Shown here: in pieces, positions 1 through 4,692 of the stretch
Layout of the letters: each line of letters starts with the position of its first letter
Position numbering within the stretch: position 1 is the stretch's first letter
Virus record (IMG/VR): IMGVR_UViG_2563366929_000001
Coordinates: 1-4,692 of that record
DNA from: a virus
Taxonomy: Duplodnaviria > Heunggongvirae > Uroviricota > Caudoviricetes
Length of the DNA: 4,692 nt
Strand: one strand, 5' to 3'
The notes under the pieces: generated by a model
Told to the model about the DNA's origin: nothing
Databases searched by the model: none
What the model saw: only the letters and a program-made list of their open reading frames with translations
Made by a program: the position numbers and the translations under genes

Positions 1-41
1 CGTTGACGGACTTCGGGGGAAAAACGAGTATTTTTAGTCAT
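1..41 (-). CDS. IS3-family transposase OrfA, 5' partial (first 13 codons; remainder lies outside the window)
   Basis: ATG at 41..39 on the minus strand preceded by AGAGG; translation MTKNTRFSPEVRQ matches the IS629-type OrfA N-terminus as I recall it. Mirror image of 4652-4692. Confidence 0.7.
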   Translation of the reverse strand, partial: MTKNTRFSPEVRQ

Positions 42-95
42 CCTGTTTACCTCTTTCTCAGGAAGTTTAGTCTCCAGGATTCCCGGGGCGGTTCA
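1..95 (-). mobile_element. IS3-family insertion sequence (IS629-like), inward-facing orfA-proximal end; element continues beyond the window start
   Basis: Positions 1-95 are the exact reverse complement of 4598-4692 (checked base by base). Read on the minus strand the terminus starts TGAACCGCCCCGGG at position 95, followed by a Shine-Dalgarno and ATG at 41..39. I recognise the terminus and the MTKNTRFSPEVRQ N-terminus as IS629/IS1203-type from memory; no database search was run. Confidence 0.85.
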
Positions 96-134
96 GAGGG
101 TCATTATGGTGAATATGCTGGCTTGCTGGTGGGC

Positions 135-149
135 TATTCCTGCTCTTTA
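135..149. repeat. Direct repeat copy A: TATTCCTGCTCTTTA
   Basis: 15/15 identical to 393-407 on the same strand. Flanks add similarity (GG before, C-TTGC after), giving roughly 27 bp with a few mismatches. On the minus strand it reads KEQE plus a stop codon (TAG). Confidence 0.8.
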
Positions 150-391
150 ACATTGCCATGCCGCGATGTTTTCCAGGTATGCGACCCCATTTTTGTGTGC
201 CTGTACTCTTTAAGGAATTTCTCAAGGACAAACGCACAGGGCGCGAATCTGTCTGACTCATGCTCGTACGCTATCTTTCTGCGCTGTCTTTTCCGTGCCG
301 GTGATGGTGTATTGGTTGATTCTTTGTTGGTCATGGCGCTGCCCTGTAAAATAATGCACCGTAGTTCCTCACACCACGGCACCTATAGTGG

Positions 392-697
392 TTATTCCTG
401 CTCTTTAGCTTTGCGCCGCTGGAGTTCTTCACGCGCGACGGTGACGAGTTGCCCGATTTCCTCGGCAGCTTTGACTCCGATTTTTTCCACCTGCGCTAGG
501 GCATCGAGCGAAGAAACCAGGGGATTTTCTCCGCTTCCTTCTGCCTGGCGGCGGGCGATTTCACCGCGAACGGCTGTAATCACGAAAGCGGCTATTGTTT
601 CCCCTTCCGTTTTCGAATTTTCCATTTCCTCGATTACATCATGGGGGAAGCGGATATTTTTCATTTGCGATCTGCTGTTGATGTTTCCTGTTGCCAT
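392..697 (-). CDS. Small putative DNA-binding regulator, possibly ribbon-helix-helix (Arc/CopG-like); 101 aa, or 90 aa if translation starts at the ATG at 664
   Basis: Intact ORF divergent from the rightward operon. The segment NIRFPHDVIEEMEN followed by GETIAAFVITAVRGEIARR has the strand-then-helix pattern of Arc/Mnt-type proteins (compared from memory). Neither candidate start has a strong Shine-Dalgarno, so the start is uncertain. Fold assignment is inference. Confidence 0.5.
   Translation of the reverse strand: MATGNINSRSQMKNIRFPHDVIEEMENSKTEGETIAAFVITAVRGEIARRQAEGSGENPLVSSLDALAQVEKIGVKAAEEIGQLVTVAREELQRRKAKEQE
393..407. repeat. Direct repeat copy B: TATTCCTGCTCTTTA, overlapping the last codons of the 392-697 minus-strand gene
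   Basis: 15/15 identical to 135-149. On the minus strand it encodes the C-terminal KEQE of the regulator gene; the TAA stop is at 394..392. Confidence 0.8.
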
Positions 698-718
698 CAG
701 AATGTCCGGTTATTTTGA

Positions 719-737
719 GGTGTGTACACATTACACC
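719..737. repeat. Operator-like palindrome 1 (GGTGTGTACACATTACACC), core TGTGTACACA perfectly palindromic
   Basis: Seen directly; GGTGT at 719-723 and ACACC at 733-737 flank the 10-bp palindrome. Overlaps a candidate leftward extended -10 (minus strand TGgTGTAAT, plus coordinates 730-738). Confidence 0.5.
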
Positions 738-759
738 AAAAGGTGTGTTGATAAAACAC

Positions 760-789
760 TTGACACTGTAGCACACTTAAATTTAATTT
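760..789 (+). promoter_or_regulatory. Candidate sigma70 promoter for the rightward operon: -35 TTGACA (760-765), 18-bp spacer, -10 TAATTT (784-789)
   Basis: Perfect -35 consensus. The -10 matches the consensus T, A and final T positions only. Prediction by eye, not experimentally supported. Confidence 0.35.
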
Positions 790-821
790 GTATATACACC
801 AATTGTTGTGGTGTATATACA
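789..821. repeat. Operator-like palindrome 2: 12-bp perfect inverted repeat TGTATATACACC (789-800) / GGTGTATATACA (810-821), 9-bp spacer
   Basis: Exact reverse-complement arms; sits over the predicted -10 and start region of the rightward promoter. Confidence 0.55.
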
Positions 822-887
822 GCAACGCCCCGCAGTGGTGGCACACATGCAGGGCGTCTAACCAAACCGTTAAACGAGGTAACGATT

Positions 888-1253
888 ATGGCTGGAACAC
901 AGCATACCCAAACTCACCCTAAATTTATATACACCTTCCTGGCGGTGCACCGTGATTGCATTGCTGACGGTAAAAACACTGTACACGTAGCCGCCGATAC
1001 GCTGGTTGATGCCTGCGAGATGCTCAATGACATGGGCTATATCTCGGCAACATGGAAAGGGCGCGAAGAAAACACGCTGTTTATTCAGAAATGCGAAAAC
1101 AATTTTATCTGGCGTTTTATCGCCCTGAGTACGGCACAACCGCGCGTGATTCACATCGAGGCCACCAGCGAACAGGAAGCACGCCAGCAATCTCCTGATG
1201 GCTGCGTGATGGTATTCGCTGCCCGTATTCGCCAGGAGGTGGAGCATGTGTAA
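888..1253 (+). CDS. Hypothetical protein (121 aa), first gene of the rightward operon
   Basis: ATG at 888 with GAGG 8 nt upstream (876-879). The stop TAA (1251-1253) overlaps the next gene's ATG (1246) in the 8-nt pattern ATGTGTAA. The 3..1253 ORF in the track is the same frame, but only the part from 888 is credible. No family recognised. Confidence 0.65.
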   Translation: MAGTQHTQTHPKFIYTFLAVHRDCIADGKNTVHVAADTLVDACEMLNDMGYISATWKGREENTLFIQKCENNFIWRFIALSTAQPRVIHIEATSEQEARQQSPDGCVMVFAARIRQEVEHV

Positions 1254-1470
1254 TGCAACATGGCCTGATGCAGCGGTAGACGCTATCAAAACGCTGATGG
1301 ATTCACTTATTGAGATTTCTGCTATCGCTGGTGTGGCGCATAAACACGCAGCCAGAGAATCAGAATGCATCTCCCATTATTTAGCATTTGTGCAGCTAAA
1401 AGCCGATCAGGCACTGGATAAGGCCGGAAAAATTATCATGGCTGATGTGCAGGAGGTGCACCATGCATAA
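1246..1470 (+). CDS. Hypothetical small protein (74 aa); C-terminus (DVQEVHHA) resembles that of gene 4
   Basis: ATG at 1246 with AGGAGG (1234-1239) 6 nt upstream; 8-nt overlaps with both neighbours. Confidence 0.65.
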   Translation: MCNATWPDAAVDAIKTLMDSLIEISAIAGVAHKHAARESECISHYLAFVQLKADQALDKAGKIIMADVQEVHHA

Positions 1471-1828
1471 CCTGTCAATTTCTGACCTTAACAGCATTCA
1501 GTTTGACGAGAAATTTACCGGGCAGTTGCTGGTCAATGTGGAGAACGGGCGCATAGTGCGTAATTACCACCTGCCGGATGGTGCAATTGCCGGAAGCGTT
1601 GAAGCATTGCTGGAGCTGGCGGAACGTGCGCGACTGATTAAGCCGTCAACGTGCCATCACGATGATGATCTGCATTTTACCGGGTGTATGGTGAGTCACT
1701 ACGAAAACGGCGTTGAAGTATCCTGCGAACGTCTGCGTGATGATTGCTGTTTCGGCACACTGCCGGAATTTATCGAATTGCTGACCAGTTGCGGTTATCA
1801 GGTCATTCAGGGGGGTAAACATGCGTGA
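1463..1828 (+). CDS. Hypothetical protein (121 aa) made of two tandem copies of an FTG-motif domain; the C-terminal copy is Cys/His-rich
   Basis: ATG at 1463 with AGGAGG (1451-1456) 6 nt upstream, preferred over the track's ATG at 1445, which has no Shine-Dalgarno. Internal repeat FTGQLLVNVENGRIV / FTGCMVSHYENGVEV. Stop TGA at 1826-1828 overlaps the next ATG at 1821. Confidence 0.65.
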   Translation: MHNLSISDLNSIQFDEKFTGQLLVNVENGRIVRNYHLPDGAIAGSVEALLELAERARLIKPSTCHHDDDLHFTGCMVSHYENGVEVSCERLRDDCCFGTLPEFIELLTSCGYQVIQGGKHA

Positions 1829-2054
1829 TGATCGTTTTAATTCCCTGAAACAGGAGTTTGATGGCGCACCGGAAGATACATCGGGCGCATTGTTGAGCAT
1901 TGCTGACATGATGAAAGCTGCATATTTTCTTATCAATACCAGTGGCTACAAGTCAGAGGGTGAAATGATTCTTAGTATTGCGTCGGACTATGCTGAATAT
2001 GTGGCAGAGACGCGTTACAGAAGAAAATCTCTGGAGGATGTAAGCCATGCATAA
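1821..2054 (+). CDS. Hypothetical small protein (77 aa); C-terminus (LEDVSHA) resembles that of gene 2
   Basis: ATG at 1821 preceded by GGGGGT (1811-1816); 8-nt overlap ATGCATAA with the next gene. Confidence 0.6.
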   Translation: MRDDRFNSLKQEFDGAPEDTSGALLSIADMMKAAYFLINTSGYKSEGEMILSIASDYAEYVAETRYRRKSLEDVSHA

Positions 2055-2247
2055 TCATGAAGCGCATGTACCCGTAGTGCTTAATGTGCCAGATGATTTC
2101 ACCGGACGCGTGCTGGTTTACCTGGATAAAGGGAAAGTGAAATCACAATGCCGACTGAAAAGTAATGAGATTGTTGGTTCTCCTGAATTTTTTTCTGAAC
2201 TTTGTATTCGTGCGGAAATAAAACCGGAACTGCTGACAGGAAAATAA
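2047..2247 (+). CDS. Hypothetical small protein (66 aa), single-copy FTG-motif domain paralogous to both halves of gene 3
   Basis: ATG at 2047 with GGAGGA (2033-2038) 8 nt upstream. By-eye alignment to the gene 3 N-terminal domain gives about 40% identity over ~44 residues (FTGRVLVYLDKGKV..., ...ELCIRAEIKP versus ...ELAERARLIKP). Confidence 0.65.
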   Translation: MHNHEAHVPVVLNVPDDFTGRVLVYLDKGKVKSQCRLKSNEIVGSPEFFSELCIRAEIKPELLTGK

Positions 2248-2251
2248 AACC

Positions 2252-2542
2252 ATGAAAAAGAAATATTCTGGCTTTACTGCCAGCGGCCTCTCTCGGCCTG
2301 AAATCCGCCCCGGTGATATTTTCCGGGACACCAGACGCGGGGGACGGGTGGTTATTCGTCACGTTACGCCAGGCAATATCACCTACCGCCGTGAGGCTTA
2401 CGAATATGACTGCGTAATGCCGCGCCGTCAGTTTGAGCGTGATTTTATTCTGGTGGAAAACAAACAACAGGCAGTGGCGAGACGTGCAGCCACGAATATT
2501 AAAAAAATCCGGGCAATGTTGGTTGCGGGAGGTAAGAAGTGA
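2252..2542 (+). CDS. Hypothetical basic small protein (96 aa); loosely reminiscent of DUF4222-type prophage proteins (low confidence)
   Basis: ATG at 2252, 4 nt after the previous stop, with only a weak Shine-Dalgarno (AGGA about 11 nt upstream). Stop TGA (2540-2542) overlaps the GTG start of the replication gene. The family hint comes from a remembered RPGD...RRG...V pattern, not a search. Confidence 0.55.
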   Translation: MKKKYSGFTASGLSRPEIRPGDIFRDTRRGGRVVIRHVTPGNITYRREAYEYDCVMPRRQFERDFILVENKQQAVARRAATNIKKIRAMLVAGGKK

Positions 2543-4344
2543 AAAACGCACCGAATTTAAAATATCAGCCGAAGGATAAATTCACCGAGGTAATCATTTT
2601 TGCCGGGACGGATGCTTACGCCCATGCTCAACACTGGATTGAAAGCGAAGGACGAAAACACGGCGATAACGTGCCTCCTGTTTACCTGGGGCCAAAGCAA
2701 CTGGCAGACCTGGCGAATATCCGCATTGTCGACGATGAACGCCGCTTTGCGCGTGTCTATCTCGCGGGGGAGATAGAGCCAATCCAGATCAATGCTATTG
2801 CTGAAAAGCTGGCGCTGGCTGGTGTACAGGACGCGAAATTATACAAAGGTATCACCGACCGGGAGCCGGAAAACTGGCGCGACTACCTGCAACGGATCCG
2901 CGAACAGGCAGAGAGTGGGGAAGTTTCAGCGATGAAATTAGCCACAAAAAATATTGACCTATCCAGGCCAGCACTAAATCAGATGGGAGCCAGCCAGAGA
3001 GGGGAAGTGTTACTTGAATATTATGGAAGAGCACTGGCTATAAATGATGATTCTGATGTAGTTCACCATTACAACGGAATTGTCTGGGTGCCTGTATCTG
3101 ATAAGGAACTCCAGCGGTCTATGGCGAAGATTTTTATTGATGCTGGAATCAGTTATTCGCAAAACGCCATTAAATTTGCCGTAGACACAATGAAATTGAG
3201 CCTGCCTGTTATGGGCGGGGCAGACAGGAATCTTATTGGATTCAGTAACGGGGTATTTGATACCCGGACGGGAAATTTTCGGGAGCATAACAAAAATGAC
3301 TGGTTGTTAAATGCCAGTGAATTACCGTTCAGCCCACCAGCAGAGGGGGAAACGCTGGCAACACATGCGCCGAATTTCTGGAAGTGGCTGCGTCGTTCGG
3401 TGGCAGATAATGATCGTAAAGCTGATCGCGTACTGGCGGCATTATTCATGGTACTGGCGAACCGGTACGACTGGCAGTTATTCCTTGAGGTAACAGGCCC
3501 AGGCGGAAGCGGTAAAAGTGTGATGGCTGAGATTTGTACCATGCTGGCGGGTAAGGCCAACACAGTATCGGCAAGCATGAAGGCTCTGGAAGACGCAAGG
3601 GAACGCGCGTTAGTAGTTGGCTTTTCGCTGATTATCATGCCGGATATGACTCGCTACGCTGGCGATGGTGCAGGAATTAAGGCAATTACTGGCGGCGACA
3701 AGGTGGCAATTGATCCGAAACATAAAGCCCCCTACTCCACACGTATTCCGGCAGTAGTGCTTGCGGTAAACAATAACGCCATGTCATTCAGTGACCGAAG
3801 CGGGGGGATCTCGCGTCGTAGGGTGATATTTAATTTCTCTGAGGTCGTACCGGAGAACGAACGCGATCCCATGCTGGCGGAAAAGATAGAAGGCGAACTG
3901 GCGGTAGTGATTCGCCATTTGCTAACACGATTTACCGACCAGGACGAAGCTAAAAGACTACTTTATGAGCAGCAAAAATCAGAAGAAGCGCTGTTGATAA
4001 AGCGCGAAGGTGATTCACTGGTGGACTTTTGCGGCTATCTGATGTCGTTGGTTAAATGTGAAGGAATGATGGTGGGCAATGCGGAAATAGTGCCATTTAG
4101 CCCGAGGCGATACCTGTATCATGCTTATTTAGCCTATATGTCAGCGCATGGCCTGGGAAAACCAGTATCACTGACACGCTTTGGTACTGATATGCCAGGA
4201 GCTATGGCGGAATACGGAAAGGAGTATAAGCGGGCTAAATGCACTAAAGGCCCGGATAAAGGGCGAGTGATAACAAATGTTCTGTTAGATGATGATGCTG
4301 ATGGCTGGTTGCCAGCAGCTACAGGGATTAACGACAGAACATAA
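2539..4344 (+). CDS. Replication protein with P4 alpha / D5-type SF3 helicase (NTPase) C-terminal domain; putative primase-helicase/replication initiator of the element (601 aa, GTG start)
   Basis: Walker A motif GPGGSGKS (nt 3496-3519). Downstream ITGGDKVAIDPKHK (from nt 3685) followed by VVLAVNNN resembles the conserved motifs of the phage/plasmid primase P4-family C-terminal domain as I recall them. GTG at 2539 with GGAGG (2528-2532) 6 nt upstream; the first in-frame ATG is ~130 codons downstream, so GTG is the likely start. I did not recognise a canonical Toprim EGxxD motif in the N-terminal ~320 aa. Confidence 0.85.
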   Translation: MKNAPNLKYQPKDKFTEVIIFAGTDAYAHAQHWIESEGRKHGDNVPPVYLGPKQLADLANIRIVDDERRFARVYLAGEIEPIQINAIAEKLALAGVQDAKLYKGITDREPENWRDYLQRIREQAESGEVSAMKLATKNIDLSRPALNQMGASQRGEVLLEYYGRALAINDDSDVVHHYNGIVWVPVSDKELQRSMAKIFIDAGISYSQNAIKFAVDTMKLSLPVMGGADRNLIGFSNGVFDTRTGNFREHNKNDWLLNASELPFSPPAEGETLATHAPNFWKWLRRSVADNDRKADRVLAALFMVLANRYDWQLFLEVTGPGGSGKSVMAEICTMLAGKANTVSASMKALEDARERALVVGFSLIIMPDMTRYAGDGAGIKAITGGDKVAIDPKHKAPYSTRIPAVVLAVNNNAMSFSDRSGGISRRRVIFNFSEVVPENERDPMLAEKIEGELAVVIRHLLTRFTDQDEAKRLLYEQQKSEEALLIKREGDSLVDFCGYLMSLVKCEGMMVGNAEIVPFSPRRYLYHAYLAYMSAHGLGKPVSLTRFGTDMPGAMAEYGKEYKRAKCTKGPDKGRVITNVLLDDDADGWLPAATGINDRT

Positions 4345-4371
4345 TACGAAATTTATAAGCTGAAACGTAAA

Positions 4372-4572
4372 GGTAGACGGTTGGTAGACAGATTCACTTA
4401 ACCCTCTACCAACCATCTACCAATTAATATTTTGAATTATAAAGATATTTTCAATGTGGTAGAGAGGTAGACAGTTATTTCTATATTCCTAAACCACGGG
4501 GGGTATATAAAAAACAGATAGTTAAGGGGGCATTTTTTAAATTTCTCTTTTAACTGTCTACACTGTCTACCA
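4372..4572. repeat. Iteron array and AT-rich tracts directly downstream of the replication gene; candidate origin of replication (P4 crr/ori analogue)
   Basis: GGTAGA(C/G) in forward orientation at 4372, 4383, 4458 and 4466 (two as GGTAGACAG). Reverse-complement copies at 4405-4410, 4416-4421 and a tandem 9-mer pair ACTGTCTAC at 4553-4561 and 4562-4570. Several pairs are spaced 11 bp apart, about one helical turn. AT-rich stretches at 4421-4457 and 4476-4553. Confidence 0.6.
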
Positions 4573-4597
4573 TTTAGTAAAAATCATTAATTATCAA

Positions 4598-4692
4598 TGA
4601 ACCGCCCCGGGAATCCTGGAGACTAAACTTCCTGAGAAAGAGGTAAACAGGATGACTAAAAATACTCGTTTTTCCCCCGAAGTCCGTCAACG
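4598..4692 (+). mobile_element. IS3-family insertion sequence (IS629-like), inward-facing orfA-proximal end; element continues beyond the window end
   Basis: TGAACCGCCCCGGGAATCCTGGAGACTAAACTTCC... begins at 4598, with Shine-Dalgarno AGAGG and ATG at 4652. Exact reverse complement of 1-95. Confidence 0.85.
4652..4692 (+). CDS. IS3-family transposase OrfA, 5' partial (first 13 codons)
   Basis: ATG at 4652; translation MTKNTRFSPEVRQ, then the window ends. Confidence 0.7.
   Translation, partial: MTKNTRFSPEVRQ

Follow-up and report, generated by a model that had tools for sequence, protein, structure and literature searches.

The 4,692-nucleotide (nt) stretch of DNA analysed here (the window; IMG/VR virus record IMGVR_UViG_2563366929_000001, positions 1 to 4,692) encodes three copies of a small FTG-motif domain, two of them in gene 3 and the third in gene 5. 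Sequence and profile comparisons place this domain in the known FsoA/Rem family of small phage antirepressors. On the same grounds, gene 5 is an ordinary new member of this poorly annotated family and gene 3 a conserved tandem variant. The initial annotation of the window had described the repeat and did not recognise the domain; it can now be named as the FsoA/Rem small-antirepressor domain (phrog_340; Pfam PF27490 'Rem'). Judging from homology, the products of both genes probably act as FsoA/Rem-type antirepressors, whose three modules would bind non-cleavable CI-type repressors and derepress resident prophages in trans.

The FTG motif occupies residues 18-20 and 72-74 of gene 3 and residues 18-20 of gene 5. 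This numbering follows the gene 3 start at 1463 assigned by the Prokaryotic Genome Annotation Pipeline (PGAP), which is backed by homologues opening with MHNLS or MINLS and by an upstream AGGAGG; the longest open reading frame (ORF) begins at 1445. Pairwise BLASTP aligned the N-terminal half of gene 3 with gene 5 at 34% identity over 61 amino acids (E 2e-8), the C-terminal half with gene 5 at 34% over 32 amino acids (E 2e-3) and the two halves with each other at 34% over 38 amino acids (E 1e-5). In Smith-Waterman comparisons the N-domain scored z = 13.3 against gene 5 and z = 7.7 against the C-domain, scores reached by 0/5000 shuffles in each case, and the C-domain scored z = 3.3 against gene 5, a score reached by 49/5000 shuffles. 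A profile built from 60 family members gave three domain matches and no others across the 28.6-kb locus of the island, at independent E-values (i-E) of 2.5e-19 for the gene 3 N-domain, 6.9e-19 for its C-domain and 1e-25 for gene 5. The similarity of the three segments is thus significant in formal pairwise and profile alignment, and the proposal of a single domain with two copies in gene 3 and another in gene 5 is borne out, for a length of about 45-60 amino acids, by pairwise, shuffle and profile statistics. The identities estimated earlier by eye, about 40% (N-domain) and 30% (C-domain) to gene 5, were a little high, as the core gives 31% and 24%, respectively. Three of the identities between the N-domain and gene 5 (MHN) are forced by the 8-nt overlap ATGCATAA common to the gene 2/3 and gene 4/5 junctions.

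A resemblance due to chance or composition, or ORFs that are not real genes, can be regarded as a negligible explanation. The C-domain and gene 5, the weakest pair, reach only z = 3.3 against shuffles, but the other pairs stand at 7.7 and 13.3 and the profile E-values range from 1e-19 to 1e-25. Moreover, the family has 97 representatives across Enterobacterales, recovered at E <= 1e-3 when 1.84 billion representatives were searched exhaustively with the domain profile in HMMER, and the predicted folds are identical. The genes are also equipped with Shine-Dalgarno motifs, and their junctions are coupled.

Scans of genes 3 and 5 against Pfam and NCBIfam returned no family; the Pfam copy lacked PF27490, and Rem itself scored zero families there. 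The profile phrog_340, labelled "unknown function" in PHROGs, matched gene 3 (E 2.3e-28, in two stretches), gene 5 (2.2e-20), Rem of Escherichia coli K-12 (4.4e-21) and FsoA (1.1e-26). When the Salmonella phage Fels-1 was scanned with the FTG profile, a single match was obtained (E 8.7e-28), the 78-amino-acid ORF L015:3497-3730(-). The published primers for PBAD-fsoA and fsoA::3xFLAG coincide exactly with the start codon and 3' end, respectively, of this ORF, which is identified as FsoA because these are the authors' own construct primers. By BLASTP, FsoA was 34% identical to gene 5 over 50 amino acids (E 3e-8) and matched the two gene 3 domains with E-values of 2e-6 and 3e-5, the C-domain being 42% identical over 50 amino acids. 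The FTG-family and Rem-family profiles aligned in hhalign at 97.35% probability (E 1.6e-11) over 49 columns that span the hairpin and the helix described below. Precomputed annotation assigns PF27490 'Rem' to all homologues of Rem and to two homologues of gene 3 (P0067 and P0068), and faintly to P0117 and P0171.

Two members of this family are characterised. FsoA, the Fels-1 antirepressor, is encoded in the early left operon of that phage and inactivates the Gifsy-2 repressor in trans (Lemire, Figueroa-Bossi, Bossi 2011, PMC3121763). It has no role in the induction of its own phage and is not controlled by LexA (PMC3121763). Rem (b1561) is encoded in Qin, a cryptic prophage of E. coli K-12; its expression raises the activity of the DicA-repressed dicB promoter (dicBp) 165-fold and leads to DicB/DicF-dependent filamentation (Ragunathan et al. 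2023, PMC10448788). The targets of these relatives, GtgR (Gifsy-2) and DicA (Qin), are short non-cleavable repressors of the CI type.

Genes 3 and 5 share with FsoA the NFTGRVVLYIENG hairpin, the F.E.A..AG helix and phrog_340, as well as the location in the early operon of a mobile element, from where FsoA acts on the repressor of another prophage. They differ in that FsoA is a single 78-amino-acid domain on a complete temperate phage, whereas three copies, two of them fused, are found here on a satellite-like island. The C-terminal 45-50 amino acids of Rem, which derepresses a DicA-controlled promoter, align with the whole FTG core, whereas its N-terminus carries an extra helix and an extra ENG hairpin instead of the leader-FTG segment. 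Rem (L003:4652-4903) itself shows a partial internal duplication, the extra ENG hairpin AVCVENGNLVSHYRI (amino acids 18-32) preceding the full hairpin-helix domain (amino acids 39-78). A small single-domain protein of about 65-90 amino acids would be expected for this family; gene 5 fits with 66 and gene 3 departs as a tandem of 121. A further expectation is a gene on a temperate phage or other such mobile element, outside the immunity region of the target, and the context agrees with it: the island carries an integrase gene, an AlpA-like helix-turn-helix (HTH) gene, AntA and a P4-alpha-like helicase, and no CI-type repressor gene adjoins genes 3 and 5.

The Gifsy antirepressors GfoA, GftA and GfhA are similarly small and share the mode of action, and alignment and PSI-BLAST results in the literature connect them with FsoA and Rem. 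Binding of GfoA or GftA makes the repressor dimer leave its operator (PMC3121763); the antirepressor-repressor complexes are approximately A2B2, with the repressor released from DNA (PMC3121763). We confirmed GftA as the GTG-start ORF between dinI and irsA, and its hhalign match to the FTG profile was weak (28%, E 6e-4) but in register with the hairpin-helix core. The Gifsy proteins belong to phrog_4847, and their genes lie beside dinI under LexA control, whereas the island has no LexA box. A search for CTGT-N8-ACAG gave one site with a single mismatch, inside gene 3 and not above chance, and no dinI gene is present in the island annotation. Membership in the class of LexA-controlled GfoA/GftA antirepressors, which are encoded in dinI-linked operons with a LexA box, was consequently rejected. 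Tum of phage 186 and epsilon of P4 showed no similarity to the FTG or Rem profiles. A tblastn search of a phage collection with gene 5 gave no match at E <= 0.01, although the collection contains FsoA; a domain of this small length and high divergence is beyond the reach of such a database-wide search.

The shared fold suggested for the repeats is supported by structure prediction, as AlphaFold2 gives a beta-hairpin followed by a helix for all three copies. A short leader precedes these elements in each FTG domain. In gene 5 (mean predicted local distance difference test score, pLDDT, 89.7) the strands comprise residues 21-27 and 30-37 and the helix residues 46-55. The N-terminal half of gene 3 has the same boundaries, and its C-terminal half has strands at 75-81 and 84-91 and a helix at 100-109. 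The mutual arrangement of the two gene 3 domains is left undefined by the model (predicted template modelling score 0.39, linker pLDDT <50). A sequence search of the PDB returned spurious designed-armadillo-repeat matches for gene 3 (E > 0.008) and none for gene 5. The FTG hairpin, 'pFTGxxxxYYENGxxxS', resembles a single MORN_2 repeat; the likeness covers the hairpin alone, with no helix. A MORN repeat variant (PF07661, YwqK-type), for which several tandem repeats would be expected, was rejected, since genes 3 and 5 had no PF07661 match at E <= 0.1 and just one hairpin in each domain is repeat-like; the likeness is probably a shared structural motif and not family membership. Several MORN_2 proteins (P0160, P0174, P0175, P0176 and P0190) were picked up by the FTG profile via many short stretches.

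The C-domain of gene 3 had also been noted as the only Cys/His-rich copy (6 Cys and 4 His in about 50 residues). This count is essentially right, as residues 63-121 contain 6 Cys and 5 His and the N-terminal half contains no Cys. It had been taken as a hint at a metal-binding or redox function gained after duplication, a proposal that we now consider very improbable. In favour of it, the other copies have none or few of these residues, and C95, C96 and C110 are retained among close homologues (>70% identical). In the tandem homologues P0117-P0119, however, these positions are occupied by H, Y, L, V or S, and the tandem homologues of other genera have retained none of the Cys residues. Among 22 gene 3 homologues, C75 is replaced by Arg in 15 and C88 in 16, and C64 is variable. 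The family alignment contains no conserved CxxC or HxxH motif, no metal-binding family was matched in Pfam or NCBIfam, and H2 and H120 are by-products of the start/stop overlaps ATGCATAA and CATGCGTGA. The enrichment is lineage-specific, and a metal site is not supported because the Cys residues are not conserved across homologues. Most likely, the FTG domain serves to switch on resident prophages rather than to bind metal, as the kinship with FsoA and Rem suggests.

The genomic context resembles that of satellite phage P4. Residues 141-592 of the helicase encoded in the window are 49% identical to residues 322-769 of P4 alpha (E 3e-156). The primase domain of P4 alpha lies in its first ~320 residues, for which the 2539-4344 product has no counterpart; it may therefore be a helicase/origin-binding protein only. 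The left operon of P4 runs cI, epsilon (helper derepression), orf151, orf106, alpha. Since the helicase is P4-alpha-like and the gene order is parallel, the FTG genes, located between the Icd-like gene and the DUF4222 and helicase genes, occupy the slot of epsilon. P4 epsilon inactivates the repressor of the helper prophage, its target being the C repressor of P2. Epsilon (Ash family) thus corresponds to genes 3 and 5 in position, upstream of an alpha-type replicase within the early operon of a satellite, but has no sequence similarity to them. Membership in the epsilon/Ash family was rejected, as the FTG profile matches no P4 ORF and genes 3 and 5 have no Pfam match. The order integrase, AlpA, ..., FTG gene, (DUF4222), primase/helicase recurs in Pectobacterium, in a Serratia-like locus and in other loci, even where the replicase is a non-orthologous Toprim/DUF927 protein. 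In our view, the satellite context and the parallel to P4 epsilon may be the most interesting aspects of these genes.

According to the proposed mechanism, the early operon of the island would fire, and the three modules would then bind dimeric repressors of the non-cleavable CI type (DicA/GtgR class) that belong to resident lambdoid prophages, helper or cryptic, and clear them from the operators. The prophages would be derepressed in trans, presumably to the benefit of the satellite, and the diverged modules would probably provide different, broader or combined repressor specificity. The covalent pair in gene 3 could plausibly supply both antirepressor subunits of a complex, because the Gifsy complexes were reported as approximately A2B2. 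The same stoichiometry agrees with the earlier thought that gene 3, as an intramolecular dimer, might imitate a homodimer of gene 5. A more specific scenario, which we regard as doubtful, is that a P4/PICI-like satellite (PICI, phage-inducible chromosomal island) replaced the epsilon function with three FsoA/Rem-type modules that induce lambdoid helpers with DicA/GtgR-type repressors. Gene 3 might then be a single-chain heterodimer that acts on both repressor subunits or bridges two repressors, a multi-specific 'master key'.

Several observations weigh against an antirepressor function of genes 3 and 5. The function would be transferred at about 30-40% identity within a domain of 45-60 amino acids. 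Most homologues of the two genes have no recorded PF27490 match and hence lie at the edge of the Pfam family. The evidence for an action of Rem on DicA is genetic only (PMC10448788), and no solved structure to confirm the fold was found for FTG, FsoA, Rem or Gifsy antirepressor proteins. EcCIMP1 is an experimentally validated PICI (PMC11773190) that has its integration site and integrase in common with the island; it contains no FTG domain. The domain is therefore an accessory module and not essential to such islands. Finally, the constant proximity to DUF4222 and a replicase, together with a fusion to a CHC2 domain, could signal a role in replication.

Such a role, in which FTG proteins would regulate the replication of the island by binding the helicase/primase or the DUF4222 protein, in the manner of P4 Cnr, appears unlikely. 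In all satellite-like loci examined, DUF4222 and the replicase do have FTG genes directly upstream, and the P4 gene just upstream of alpha (orf106/cnr) controls copy number. Furthermore, a DnaG-type CHC2 zinc ribbon is fused to an FTG domain in Citrobacter koseri (P0138 cluster, 132-134 amino acids, 16 members). However, the other fusions are with Bro-N and AntA domains of the antirepressor type, and the two characterised homologues have repressors as targets, their genes lying apart from any replicase (fsoA in the early left operon of Fels-1, rem in Qin). The neighbouring replicases, of P4-alpha type or Toprim/DUF927, are non-orthologous, which argues against a specific protein partner. The loci of the CHC2-FTG protein (L009:412-816, L010:2421-2825) lie in AlpA-containing, satellite-like operons of small genes.

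A slightly lower probability still is assigned to antirepression of the island's own circuit, in which the modules would relieve a repressor that silences the island (for example the divergent YlcI/YnfO-family protein), instead of helper prophages. This idea is favoured by two features at the operon's start, a perfect palindrome (789-821) and the divergently oriented gene on the minus strand (392-697), and by the action of Rem on the repressor of its own prophage. On the other hand, genes 3 and 5 sit inside the operon that would be derepressed, so that only positive feedback would result, YlcI/YnfO is not an HTH repressor of the DicA/GtgR type, and FsoA acts in trans with no role in inducing its own phage.

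Release of resident prophages in trans by FsoA/Rem-type modules would have consequences beyond this island. The genes are annotated as "hypothetical" in about a thousand complete E. coli genomes, and the link to FsoA and Rem offers a testable function for them. If it holds, enterobacterial satellites besides P4 carry their own inducers of helper prophages, aimed at lambdoid prophages with non-cleavable repressors, and a route of satellite-prophage crosstalk would bypass the SOS response. The tandem form and the natural hybrid and deletion alleles described below make up a compact system in which the encoding of antirepressor specificity can be studied.

Most of the 97 family representatives are 60-90 amino acids long, with the consensus ..FTGRvlv.vENG.v.s...L.d.e.v.tl..F.ElA..AGy.V. 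Where the source names an organism, the representatives are from Enterobacterales (Escherichia, Salmonella, Citrobacter, Dickeya, Pectobacterium, Sodalis, Cedecea and Serratia). A profile scan of genome contigs with a narrowed alignment gave two loci only. Long repetitive matches to P0120 and P0135 were dismissed as low-complexity artefacts. The FTG domain also forms the C-terminal module of antirepressor-type proteins with Bro-N or AntA domains (phrog_2379, phrog_4792): P0146 matches phrog_2379 'anti-repressor' end to end and P0098 combines AntA with FTG. Genes 3 and 5 differ from these in having no N-terminal Bro-N or AntA domain, and the AntA protein of the island is encoded by a separate gene upstream of the window. 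The gene 2 family (phrog_5146) is fused to FTG elsewhere, in the order FTG, gene 2-like, FTG in P0171 and FTG, gene 2-like in P0112. Together, genes 2-5 may be a single functional cassette made of small domains that have been shuffled. The 154-amino-acid phrog_2512 looks like a fusion of gene 2-like and gene 4-like parts; no relationship between genes 2 and 4 was detected when the two were compared.

The N-domain of gene 3 is 42-44% identical to the N-domains of tandem homologues in other genera, with which it is orthologous, and 23-29% identical to their C-domains. C-domains are 36-43% identical to C-domains across genera, with cross-half identities of 21-29%, and the two-domain form is kept in Cedecea- and Serratia-type homologues. 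As N-domains group with N-domains and C-domains with C-domains, the duplication is old and both halves have been retained, which argues that the two-domain form is functional. Direct DNA repeats among the three copies are limited to microhomologies of 9-12 nt, so that the duplications must be old. Natural deletion and hybrid alleles have junctions that coincide with short direct repeats. P0092 (67 amino acids) lacks residues 21-74 through a deletion between two TTTACCGGG (FTG) sites (1514-1522 and 1676-1684, 162 nt apart), and P0086 and P0087 (83 amino acids) lack residues 48-85 through a deletion between 12-nt repeats (1596-1607 and 1710-1721, 114 nt apart). In P0025 the gene 3 leader is joined to the gene 5 body at the FTG motif.

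Positions 96-4692 of the window are 100% identical to several complete E. coli genomes and represent a chromosomal segment. In strain AHB12 this segment is part of a ~16-kb island at tRNA-Thr (thrW), adjoining proA. The island starts with a tyrosine integrase gene, a hypothetical gene, a gene for a 65-amino-acid HTH protein (AlpA-like) and an AntA/AntB antirepressor-family gene, followed by two leftward genes, one hypothetical and one of the YlcI/YnfO family. The rightward operon contains the Icd-like gene, genes 2, 3, 4 and 5, the DUF4222 gene and the gene of a "DNA primase family protein". Beyond the helicase lie an IS3 insertion, small hypothetical genes and a methyltransferase/DUF262/HEPN cluster. 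Region 1463-2247 is mosaic. In a set of 5426 complete E. coli genomes, 157 have at least 80% of it and 1005 have at least a part. E. coli 55989 has the Icd-like gene, gene 3, gene 5 and DUF4222 and lacks genes 2 and 4. The adjacency of an FTG gene and DUF4222 in this strain is also seen in loci L011 and L012. The features of the window are compiled in the table.

Table. Genes, domains and control region in the window
Feature	Position	Strand	Evidence
YlcI/YnfO-family gene, divergent	392-697	-	
Divergent control region, palindrome at 789-821	698..887	.	sequence and scan
Icd-like gene, first of the rightward early operon	888..1253	+	NF033153 E 6e-23; PGAP annotation; weak similarity to P4 'cI' ORF product
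Gene 2, 74 amino acids, helical small protein, translationally coupled to gene 3	1246..1470	+	phrog_5146 E 1.7e-48
Gene 3, 121 amino acids, two FsoA/Rem-type antirepressor domains in tandem	1463..1828	+	ORF, PGAP; phrog_340 E 2.3e-28, 2 stretches
Gene 3 N-domain, residues 1-63: leader, FTG 18-20, beta-hairpin 21-37, helix 46-55	1463..1651	+	family profile i-E 2.5e-19; AlphaFold2
Gene 3 C-domain, residues 71-118: FTG 72-74, beta-hairpin 75-91, helix 100-109	1673..1816	+	family profile i-E 6.9e-19; AlphaFold2
Gene 4, 77 amino acids, interleaved small gene, missing from some island alleles	1821..2054	+	phrog_24341 E 7.5e-47
Gene 5, 66 amino acids, single-domain FsoA/Rem-type protein	2047..2247	+	phrog_340 E 2.2e-20; AlphaFold2 pLDDT 89.7
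DUF4222 gene, constant downstream neighbour of FTG genes	2252..2542	+	PF13973 E 1.3e-19
P4-alpha-like replicative helicase ('DNA primase family protein')	2539..4344	+	D5_N, DUF5906, Pox_D5 domains

The junctions of genes 2/3 (1463-1470), 3/4 (1821-1828) and 4/5 (2047-2054) each overlap by 8 nt, with the sequences ATGCATAA, ATGCGTGA and ATGCATAA, respectively, and the 23-nt junctions 1448-1470 and 2032-2054 are 78% identical. Many family members begin with 'MHN' and end with '...HA', as this start/stop overlap design dictates. Positions 789-821, in the intergenic stretch that separates the Icd-like operon from the divergent YlcI/YnfO gene, form a perfect inverted repeat with 13-bp arms, TGTATATACACCA-N7-TGGTGTATATACA. 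From these elements, region 698-887 is probably the promoter/operator of the operon that contains genes 3 and 5. A TTGACA at 760-765 lies just upstream of the palindrome, and motifs resembling GGTGTGT/ACACACC occur at 720-760.

Both ends of the window (1-115 and 4600-4692) are ends of IS3-family elements, which explains the thousands of partial matches obtained for the whole window. Thousands of records have IS3-family transposase regions that match the first ~115 nt, and the match unique to the island begins at 96. In the best-matching genomes an IS3 element with a programmed frameshift begins right after the helicase gene. The metagenomic locus L011:5217-8295 encodes, in this order, AlpA, an FTG-gene 2-FTG protein, DUF4222 and a DUF927 replicase. 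The tail-type genes that come next (Dit_like, Pam3_gp18, E217_GP41, Apex) are unusual as the cargo of a satellite-like element. The Icd-like protein seems to hold the Icd-type motif twice, as residues 3-22 resemble residues 75-94 of the P4 'cI' product (E 4e-5) and residues 73-116 match NF033153; families related to it are labelled 'transcriptional repressor' in PHROGs.

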